From an uncultured Nitrospirota bacterium (GTDB taxonomy: Bacteria; CG2-30-53-67), in NCBI GenBank assembly GCA_964483105.1, contig CAYZZU010000008.1, positions 20,642-84,641 of the forward strand: 64,000 bases of DNA, read 5' to 3'. Position numbers: made by a program. This document shows, piece after piece, positions 62,601 to 64,000 of this stretch; position 1 is the stretch's first letter, and each line of letters opens with the position of its first letter.

Positions 62601-64000
62601 TTCAGATCGTTTTGTTGAGGAAGCTCGTTTTGAAAAGTGCCCGGAGTGTTTTTTTGTACCATTCAGAGAAATCCTGATAAAACTTCAGCTGAAGGCAGGC
62701 AACACGATCCCGGACAAAGAAGATGGTCTCGCAAAAAGCCCCGCACCCCTTCGACAAGCTCAGGGCGAACGGTGTAAGTGATTGATATTCCGTTCGTGGT
62801 GAGCTCAGTCGAACTATACGATCTCGCCCTTTTCTCCTCTCCTTCTGCGATGTTAGGTTGCGTGACAGGGGAATTGCTCGCCCCGCGGGGGAGTCGGGTT
62901 TGCCTATCCTGTCGATCCGGTTCATCCTGTCAAAAAGATTTTGATTTTTATTTCCGATCTTTACCCCGTGCCGCTCCATAGCTTCTGGTCGTGATTTGAT
63001 TTTCAGTTTTGTAGTGCGGGTTTCCACCCCTCCGGAAAGGATCTTAATCACCATAAATAATGGGAGGAAGTCTTGGAACGCTTTTTCTCCTTGCTATTTT
63101 AAAATCCTTGTGTTATAAATAAAAACGGTCTTGCCGGAGGAGTCCATTCGTCAACCCGCGTCCTGTTGAGGGGTCGGATGGAGTCGACGAAGGGGAAGAA
63201 GACCATGCGGTTTTTTATTAGGTGGAGGTAAGAAGCTGTACAATCAAAAAAGAGCCACCGAGGAACAAAGGAGTAGAAGATGGTAGAAGGAACGGTCAAA
63301 TGGTTTAACGAGTCAAAAGGATTCGGGTTTATCGAACAGGAAAACGGGGCGGACGTGTTCGTCCACTTTTCCGCGATTCAGGGCGAAGGATTCAAAACCC
63401 TGAATGACGGAGATACCGTCCAGTTTGATATCATTCAGGGAAGCAAAGGTCCCCAGGCCGCCAATGTGGTGAGAATGTAAGACAGCTTGCCTCCAAAACA
63501 ACCAGAAAAAGCTCTGCATGATCATGCAGAGCTTTTTTTATGGCGCGCCAGGCATGATGTGATGGTCTCGCAAAAAGTCCCGCACCCCTTCCGATCCTTC
63601 GGCGAGCTTAGGAGAGCCTTGCTCAGGGCGAACGGTGTAAATGATTGATATTCCGTTCGCGGTGAGCCTGTCGAACCATGAACGGAATCCGGGAAAGCCC
63701 TTTTTCTGGAAATCTGTTTGTTCTAAAAAAAAAGCTTGACACCGCCTCTTTCGTATTATACAAGAATAGAACTACTCATTTCCCTGTTCAATTATACGCT
63801 TTAAGATAATGGATCAAGACAGAGGTCCAGTCACCCCTCTTCACGCGCCGCGGGTGCTCAACGAGGCGTATGAATACGAAAAACCGGTTCCCTTTTCCCG
63901 GGGCCTGAAGATCGAGATCGATTCCCCGTCGGTGCTCATCATCCTCTCCGGCACGGCCAGCGTGGATCACCGGGGGAAGAGCCTGTATCCCGGGGATCTC

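Follow-up and report, generated by a model that had tools for sequence, protein, structure and literature searches.

Direct repeats around cspA in an uncultured Nitrospirota bacterium are very probably decayed copies of a MITE

The described MITEs of bacteria include Correia/NEMIS in Neisseria, RUP in Streptococcus pneumoniae, ERIC/IRU in the enterobacteria and Nezha in the cyanobacteria. The repeat family considered here, to which two copies of a repeat (R2) found on either side of a cspA gene very probably belong, resembles these elements in being short (approximately 135 nt) and non-coding, and in having terminal inverted repeats and a target duplication of fixed length. It also resembles them in the many near-identical intergenic copies, in the long hairpin formed by the whole element and in the presence of decayed copies beside genes. 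It differs in that the terminal repeat TGATGGTCTCGTAAAAAGTC together with a 4 bp duplication is not known to match any of Correia/NEMIS, RUP, ERIC/IRU or Nezha, in that no autonomous partner was found in the sequences searched, and in that a module from its interior also circulates without the MITE ends. Like the BIMEs of E. coli, the DNA near cspA includes several short repeat types (R0, R2 and R1) that are recombined differently at different loci, but the R0, R2 and R1 sequences are unrelated to the E. coli REP motifs and no IHF or gyrase binding can be inferred from them. The REPINs and REP sequences mobilised by RAYTs (PMC3116915, PMC3337134, PMC8266576) share with the R2 core an arrangement of two inverted, imperfectly palindromic units (approximately 33 nt in R2) that are separated by a spacer and form a long hairpin; the same papers describe REPIN-RAYT systems for the most part as inherited vertically within lineages.

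The window analysed here is a 64 kb stretch (64 000 nt) of the genome of an uncultured Nitrospirota bacterium (GenBank contig CAYZZU010000008.1, positions 20 642 to 84 641), and it is contained in JGI contig Ga0256915_100014. The features at cspA, and the related ones upstream of typA, are as follows.

62577 to 62720, no strand assigned: R0, a third repeat directly left of R2_up, lying between it and the start of the metallophosphoesterase gene (62528, minus strand).
62721 to 62843, plus strand: R2_up, very probably a decayed MITE copy, with a sharp left end and an approximate right boundary that adjoins R1.
62721 to 62740, plus strand: left terminal inverted repeat of R2_up, aGATGGTCTCGCAAAAAGCC, with 17 of 20 positions as in the family repeat.
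62750 to 62813, plus strand: long hairpin of the R2_up core, made up of TTCGAC, AGCTCA and GCGAACGG, the 17 nt centre, then CCGTTCGT, TGAGCT and GTCGAA.
62844 to 62931, plus strand: R1 at cspA, directly right of R2_up and 88–89 % identical to 16592–16682.
63280 to 63480, plus strand: cspA ORF (66 aa, CSD domain), the bracketed gene and not part of the element.
63506 to 63546, plus strand: intrinsic terminator of cspA, with perfect 16 nt inverted repeat arms (hairpin 63506–63537) and a T run.
63560 to 63714, plus strand: R2_down, very probably a decayed MITE copy and near full length; the right boundary is approximate (about 63705–63714).
63560 to 63579, plus strand: left terminal inverted repeat of R2_down, TGATGGTCTCGCAAAAAGTC, with 19 of 20 positions as in the family repeat.
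63592 to 63620, plus strand: extra partial module in R2_down, CGATCCTTCGGCGAGCTTAGGAGAGCCTT, resembling CCTTCGACAAGCTCAGG.
63621 to 63667, plus strand: inter-arm hairpin of the R2_down core, from inverted-repeat finding and DNA folding.
63650 to 63688, plus strand: hairpin of the right-arm unit of R2_down, ATTCCGTTCGCGGT, loop GAGCCTGTCGA, ACCATGAACGGAAT; an inverted-repeat pair whose pairing is backed by covariation in the family.
63689 to 63714, plus strand: decayed right end of R2_down, CCGGGAAAGCCCTTTTTCTGGAAATC, a homologue of right ends in the family, for instance AACGGAATCCGGAAAACGACTTTTTGCGACTTCATCA.
16545 (approximate) to 16591, plus strand: truncated R2-type element upstream of typA, of which the right half is present, strongly decayed and sharing a 9 nt deletion with R2_up.
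16592 to 16682, plus strand: R1 at typA, upstream of the typA ORF (16844–18655).

The initial annotation described cspA as bracketed by direct R2 repeats that share a hairpin, and this arrangement is real. R2 is present as two direct copies of approximately 120–155 nt (62721 to about 62843 and 63560 to about 63714) at the two places given in that annotation, and the pair encloses both the cspA ORF and its terminator hairpin. The left module, GATGGTCTCGCAAAAAG[C/T]CCCGCACCCCTTC, is identical at 30 of 31 positions (97 %) between 62722–62752 and 63561–63591, and the core, GCTCAGGGCGAACGG-17 nt-CCGTTCG[T/C]GGTGAGC, at 45 of 47 positions (96 %) between 62758–62804 and 63621–63667. With up to three mismatches allowed, each of these patterns occurs exactly twice in the window, and the number expected from 100 shuffles is 0.00. 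Some details needed revision. The stem had been read as an interrupted one of 7+5 bp; the hairpin itself stands, and in R2_up the stem is longer, with 6+6+8 pairs (20 in total) over 62750–62813 and a DNA fold of −17.6 kcal/mol (z −4.76). The start given for the second copy was correct, but this copy continues to the right of 63676, to about 63705–63714. It does contain the 29 nt stretch that had been noted as an insertion; this is a partial additional copy of the CCTTCG..AGCT.AGG module. The stretch occupies the same place as the extra module in 150 nt variants of the family described below, and a nearly identical sub-module is present in one of the metagenome loci that we retrieved (L238).

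Relatives of R2 were sought by scanning metagenome contigs for the R2-like centre GAACGG-N4-24-ATTGATATTCCGTTCG, and the family figures given here hold among the matches listed. They define a family that is present in high copy in metagenome contigs, with the consensus TGATGGTCTCGTAAAAAGTCAGCATCACCCTTCGACAGGCTCAGGGTGAACGG-TGTAACCTATTGATATT-CCGTTCGTGCTGAGCTTGTCGAAGCATGAACGACATACGGAATATGACTTTTTACGAGTTCATCA and with ends that are 20 bp terminal inverted repeats (5'-TGATGGTCTCGTAAAAAGTC ... GACTTTTTACGAGNNCATCA-3'). At least 64 distinct insertion sites of complete elements were found, and 43 of the elements are exactly 135 nt long with a median identity to the consensus of 98.5 %. Longer variants of 150, 196 and 220 nt hold extra copies of the module. 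The 4 bp flanking the element on each side are identical at 50 of the 64 sites among the matches listed, as against 5 of 64 when 5 bp were compared and 7, 5 and 2 in offset controls.

Both copies at cspA are homologous to this family. An nhmmer profile built from the metagenome copies only detected R2_down at 63560–63705 (profile positions 1–123 of 135, E 1e-22) and R2_up at 62722–62816 (E 5e-20), and R2_down matches the consensus at 100 of its 135 positions, R2_up at 91. In blastn comparisons, R2 and the family share 84–85 % identity across 94 nt, with matches in 190 of the fetched loci, and the 17 nt centre of the R2 copies agrees with the family centre TGTAACCTATTGATATT at 13–14 of 17 positions. 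The initial annotation was thus correct that the 17 nt loop is conserved in both copies, a conservation that reflects descent within the family. It had also named two observations that would count against a special role of R2 at cspA, namely that R2 belongs to an IS or MITE family with terminal repeats and target duplications and that it recurs at dozens of unrelated places. Essentially both were made: the family has 20 bp repeats and a 4 bp duplication at most sites, and relatives of R2 lie at well over a hundred unrelated loci, including loci from sediment and groundwater bacteria. The position of R2 around cspA is therefore probably incidental. Elements with the same inverted repeats and a different centre were also found in MAGs labelled Nitrospirae and Deltaproteobacteria. 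At one locus (L022), two direct copies enclose an unrelated gene of 387 aa, and one of the copies provides the stop codon of that gene.

We conclude that R2 is, with high probability, a MITE, that is a short, non-coding, non-autonomous DNA transposon, the copies here being inactive now. MITEs are a well-known kind of element, and the R2 family appears to be without a name in the searchable literature: keyword searches returned no named family that matches R2, and full-text searches with DNA strings or with encoded peptide strings returned no published description of the family or of its module.

The assignment, drawn from sequence comparison, rests on homology to intact family members and not on hallmarks of the two copies themselves. 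In both R2_up and R2_down the right inverted repeat has decayed beyond confident recognition, and no target-site duplication is visible at either copy when 62300–64000 is read; hence, the copies look like immobile relics and are probably old. A candidate for the right repeat of R2_up at the end of R1 (…GGTTCATCC) was discarded as a weak match without a target duplication. Substitutions common to both copies and absent from the metagenome consensus indicate a single local sub-lineage. A relative of the host carries, at another place, a solo right end of the same sub-type (AACGGAATCCGGAAAACGACTTTTTGCGACTTCATCA) that is like the right end of R2_down. The similarity between the two sites ends at the element boundaries and the outer flanks are unrelated, which would fit separate insertions into long intergenic DNA rather than a segmental duplication.

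In 74 kb of the host genome there are two copies and one fragment (upstream of typA), and the family profile matched the two copies and nothing else there; a variant is present on another contig of the same sample, and the solo right end was seen in one relative. The two detectable copies are only 840 nt apart around one gene, and so are somewhat more clustered than random placement would give. Among the matches listed and inspected, none of the metagenome copies of the family comes from the host's own sample.

The terminal inverted repeats and the 4 bp duplication point to a transposase, encoded elsewhere, that acts on both ends. Such an enzyme, supplied in trans, would bind the two MITE ends and insert the element at a 4 bp staggered cut. 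Ends with TG...CA tips combined with a 4 bp duplication are associated with IS3-type DDE transposases, and we take this as a lead only. An autonomous element with the same ends was sought as pairs of the inverted repeat 300–4000 nt apart, with or without a matching 4 bp duplication. It was found neither in the fetched loci (approximately 1.6 Mb) nor in viral contigs, where a single MITE end, and no IS, matched the inverted repeat. The only candidate pair (L246, 5374–8686) holds genes for an electron-transfer flavoprotein (ETF) and an enoyl-CoA hydratase and was set aside as a chance match.

The DNA upstream of cspA includes further repeats. In the same sample, two other contigs carry copies of R0 (86–92 % identical), upstream of an amidohydrolase gene and of a PfkB/ThiD-like kinase gene. 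On one of these contigs (L256), an R2-type element with a different interior begins at the same R0 junction (CAAAGAA/GATGG) and closes with the decayed right end also seen in R2_up; on the other (L258) R0 is present alone. Substitutions in R0 show no codon bias (5, 8 and 10 by codon position), so R0 is probably not coding. R1 was seen only at typA and cspA, being absent, outside the window's own contigs, from the approximately 1.6 Mb of fetched loci. At typA, R1 is preceded by a degenerate R2 tail, as the initial annotation had observed; this fragment (approximately 16545–16591) is missed by the MITE family profile. A composite R2–R1 element had been suggested from this, and it is correct that a decayed R2 right half and R1 recur as a block at typA. 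R0 and an R2-type left end recur together on another contig of the same sample, so that the region upstream of cspA is a mosaic in which three repeats (R0, R2 and R1) are combined, and all three also occur in front of genes other than cspA.

An ORF of 150 aa has been called across R1 and R2 (62605–63054, minus strand). Neither this ORF nor others overlapping R2 matched any Pfam or NCBIfam family, and homologues of the 150 aa ORF match only via residues 114–150, which correspond to R0, and none through the R2 part. Used as a probe for more copies of R2, the ORF returned R0 only. By these comparisons R2 itself is non-coding, and such elements yield spurious ORFs, of which this "gene" over R2 and R1 is an example, with peptide strings such as PFALSLSKG and FDKLRANG.

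The wider context was compared using the closest IleRS sequences, which are 70–73 % identical to that of the host, one of them being from a "Deltaproteobacteria bacterium" MAG (71 %). In three relatives (IleRS 71–73 %) a HEAT-HD-metallophosphoesterase operon, with the metallophosphoesterase gene at its end, occupies this locus, and neither cspA nor R2 is present there. Synteny is retained on the other side (response regulator, hisF, hisA and ileS) and ends exactly at the metallophosphoesterase start, where R0 and R2 begin, indicating that the repeats sit at a rearrangement breakpoint. The non-syntenic stretch continues past R2_down into a RidA-family (Ribonuc_L-PSP) gene and a gene for a protein of 1263 aa, so this is not the simple insertion of a cspA cassette. 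The CspA of the window was found in a single context only. A second csp gene is present in the window (20640–20837, minus strand) and, as the initial annotation had suspected, it lacks R2, neither the patterns nor the MITE profile finding any copy there. Its product is 74 % identical to CspA, so cspA is not a recent duplicate.

The interior of R2 has a distribution of its own. Using one genome per species, a scan for the core (GCTCAGGGCGAACGG-N8-38-CCGTTCGNNNTGAGC) gave at least 120 rows, which include Dependentiae (TM6), Chloroflexota, Nitrospirota, Binatia, Tectomicrobia and Alpha-, Beta-, Gamma- and Deltaproteobacteria. The matches include cultured isolates and closed chromosomes, and the spread across phyla is thus not a binning artefact. 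The interior, a palindromic module, also circulates without the MITE ends in many bacterial phyla, and it is rare in viral contigs (four stretches). The module has the architecture (CCGTTCA)-CCC-TTCGACARGCTCA-GGG-CGAACGG, a variable centre, then CCGTTCG-XYZ-TGAGCYTGTCGAA-Z'Y'X'-(TGAACGG), that is two inverted units of approximately 33 nt around a centre of 8–38 nt. The units, which usually occur as inverted pairs, are small hairpins, each with a conserved and nearly invariant 13 nt loop (TTCGACARGCTCA or its complement) on a freely covarying stem.

The partner of the triplet XYZ is the triplet that follows GTCGAA in the same arm, not the GGG of the opposite arm. Among the matches listed, the triplets following CCGTTCG and GTCGAA are reverse complements of each other in 77 of 84 instances, with eight different pairs represented. 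When 71 distinct right arms were aligned without gaps, the inner three pairs showed numerous double changes, being UA (48), GC (14) or CG (5); GC (63) or CG (5); and CG (44), GC (22) or UA (3). The observed level of covariation in the unit stem was reached in none of 500 shuffles, and slid controls also fell well short of it. Since the loop of one unit is the complement of the loop of the other, the two units can alternatively pair with each other to give the long "interrupted" hairpin, and the interruption in the stem as initially drawn is, on this pattern of substitution, the part where each unit pairs with itself. Variants of the module containing GGCTCAGGACGAACG resemble the 5' end of 16S rRNA, but the match goes no further and the resemblance was put down to coincidence.

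A hairpin-binding enzyme or host factor with sequence specificity would select for just this combination of a conserved loop and a covarying stem. On this ground the module could represent a pan-bacterial REP-like element, as yet undescribed, that has a mobilising or binding protein of its own and hitch-hikes inside MITEs such as R2, a suggestion that we regard as tentative and, on balance, doubtful.

These features also raise the question of whether R2 itself is a REPIN. Such a doublet of REP hairpins would be copied in single-stranded form by a REP-associated tyrosine (Y1/HUH) transposase, and not moved by a transposase acting on terminal inverted repeats. The paired hairpin units around a spacer, their covarying stems and their conserved loop would agree with this, as would the generic cross-phylum copies of the module, of which 113 of 119 among the matches listed lack a direct repeat at their flanks, and the remnant of a Y1_Tnp/REP_Tyr_transpos-like gene within the window (33284–34033). 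Nevertheless, we consider it improbable. The R2-type family has 20 bp terminal inverted repeats and a 4 bp target duplication, whereas RAYT/IS200-type transposition, to our knowledge, leaves neither. R2-type copies have no conserved GTAG-type tag beside the hairpin, and the same core sequence is found across phyla, in contrast to the lineage-bound REPIN-RAYT systems. The Y1-type gene, the only one in the window, is truncated at its 5' end and lacks the N-terminal part that bears the HUH motif; its score of 29 bits lies below the cutoff of 80, and the inverted repeats on either side of it (GGGGACGTTGTTAC) are unrelated to R2. Using phmmer, no Y1 genes were found near modules in 1.5 Mb of loci, and no cognate RAYT flanked by R2-type hairpins was seen in the window or in the fetched loci.

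A further reading is that R2 serves cspA. The initial annotation had proposed a pair of small RNAs or insulator-like sites around a highly expressed gene, and hairpins that terminate transcription would be a variant of this. The hairpin is stable, there is one copy on each side of the gene, and R2_down, which begins 14 nt past the cspA terminator and includes a weak terminator-like site (63688–63710), could be a back-up terminator. However, folded as RNA, the whole elements are unremarkable (z −0.5 to −1.7), and descent from a mobile family, members of which lie beside unrelated genes, explains the conservation. Covariance models from Rfam gave no match over R2 at gathering thresholds and none at E values up to 10, the only nearby match being a sub-threshold one to the cspA thermoregulator over the 5' UTR and coding region of cspA. 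R2_up sits approximately 240 nt upstream of a promoter-like site read by eye, and neither copy is expected to be within the cspA mRNA. The absence of R2 from the second csp gene and of both cspA and R2 from the locus in the relatives also argues against a function in cspA expression. We found no evidence that R2 regulates cspA, and such a role is very unlikely.

Least probable is that the two direct copies form a composite transposon, or a duplication scar, that brought cspA to its present place. They do enclose a whole transcription unit at the point where synteny breaks, and MITE pairs can in principle mobilise the DNA between them. Against this, the pair as a whole has no 4 bp duplication on its two sides, its outer right inverted repeat has decayed, and no similarity is shared by the DNA outside the two R2 copies. 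Moreover, synteny remains lost beyond R2_down, the csp paralogue is only 74 % identical, and the exact CspA is found in one context with no second copy of the block. We found no evidence that R2 mobilised the gene.

As decayed MITE copies, the R2 repeats would be relics of selfish DNA, and there is no reason to think that cspA is specially regulated or mobile in this organism. Contigs often end within or beside copies of such elements, and the elements mark rearrangement breakpoints, so that recognising them improves the annotation of metagenome-assembled genomes. The residual interest lies to a lesser extent in R0 and R1 and chiefly in the cross-phylum hairpin module, which is near-unchanged across phyla and whose covariation gives a concrete structure with which a protein partner may be sought.

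In L022, from a MAG labelled Nitrospirae, a sister MITE is present in two directly repeated copies (304–436 and 1676–1810) that enclose a single unrelated gene of 387 aa; the second copy supplies the stop codon of the gene, and an additional solo right end lies at 1866–1895. This shows that cspA, which lies between the decayed MITE copies designated R2, is not alone in being a single gene bracketed by the family.

Further features of the window, and related repeats outside it, are as follows (strand given where noted).

16592–16682, R1 copy upstream of typA
33284–34033, 5′-truncated gene whose product joins a Y1_Tnp/REP-associated-tyrosine-transposase-like domain to a DnaA_C-type helix-turn-helix domain
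37186–37251, minus strand, fluoride riboswitch (crcB motif), scoring 40.4 bits where the gathering score is 34
62577–62720, R0 copy upstream of a metallophosphoesterase gene
62605–63054, minus strand, 150-aa ORF annotated by gene callers, spanning R1, R2 and R0
62844–62931, R1 copy upstream of cspA
63081–63109, cspA promoter-like site, read by eye (TTGCTA, 17 nt, TATAAA, with TG upstream)
63110–63279, cspA 5′ UTR of ~170 nt, 3′ of the promoter-like site
L256 (about 190–415) and L258 (about 1830–2060), both from the same sample as the window, and L270 (about 9810–9860), a further fetched locus: R0 copies, the one in L270 weak

The cspA 5′ UTR has short blocks in common with the other csp gene, namely CTGTACA and the ribosome-binding-site region, and the Rfam model of the enterobacterial cspA thermoregulator scored 40.6 bits at cspA, below its gathering score of 78.

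The two copies of R1 (~90 nt) are 88–89 % identical to each other and include a GC-rich hairpin, two ATCCTGTC direct repeats and an inverted GACAGG, with a decayed R2 right half preceding R1 at both sites. No further R1 turned up in the other fetched loci, about 1.6 Mb in all. The products of the two downstream genes, TypA/BipA and CspA, are each tied to growth in the cold.

R0 (~140–200 nt) is found in identical orientation upstream of four different genes, for a metallophosphoesterase, an amidohydrolase, a PfkB/ThiD-like kinase and guaB, though the guaB case, in a relative, is weak. Its core of ~75 nt is about 97 % conserved, and the window copy is missing 57 nt of the other copies. No codon bias was seen in the R0 substitutions, nor was there any match to R0 in Rfam. 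R0 could be the end of a mobile element, or a promoter/5′-UTR module common to several genes.

The Y1_Tnp-like gene is missing the HUH region and is enclosed by 26-nt imperfect inverted repeats (33241–33266 and 34040–34065; core GGGGACGTTGTTAC), the whole region being 33241–34065. An intact homologue is present in L270 (14874–15797); the repeat that flanks it is a different one (GGTGTCAGGCCYTGACAAATGATATAA, three copies within 2 kb).

The 150-aa ORF is almost certainly not a genuine gene. When translated, the module, the inverted ~33-nt hairpin units found inside R2 and across phyla, yields the recurring peptide strings PFALSLSKG, FDKLRANG and VSLSNH, and these probably contaminate protein databases.
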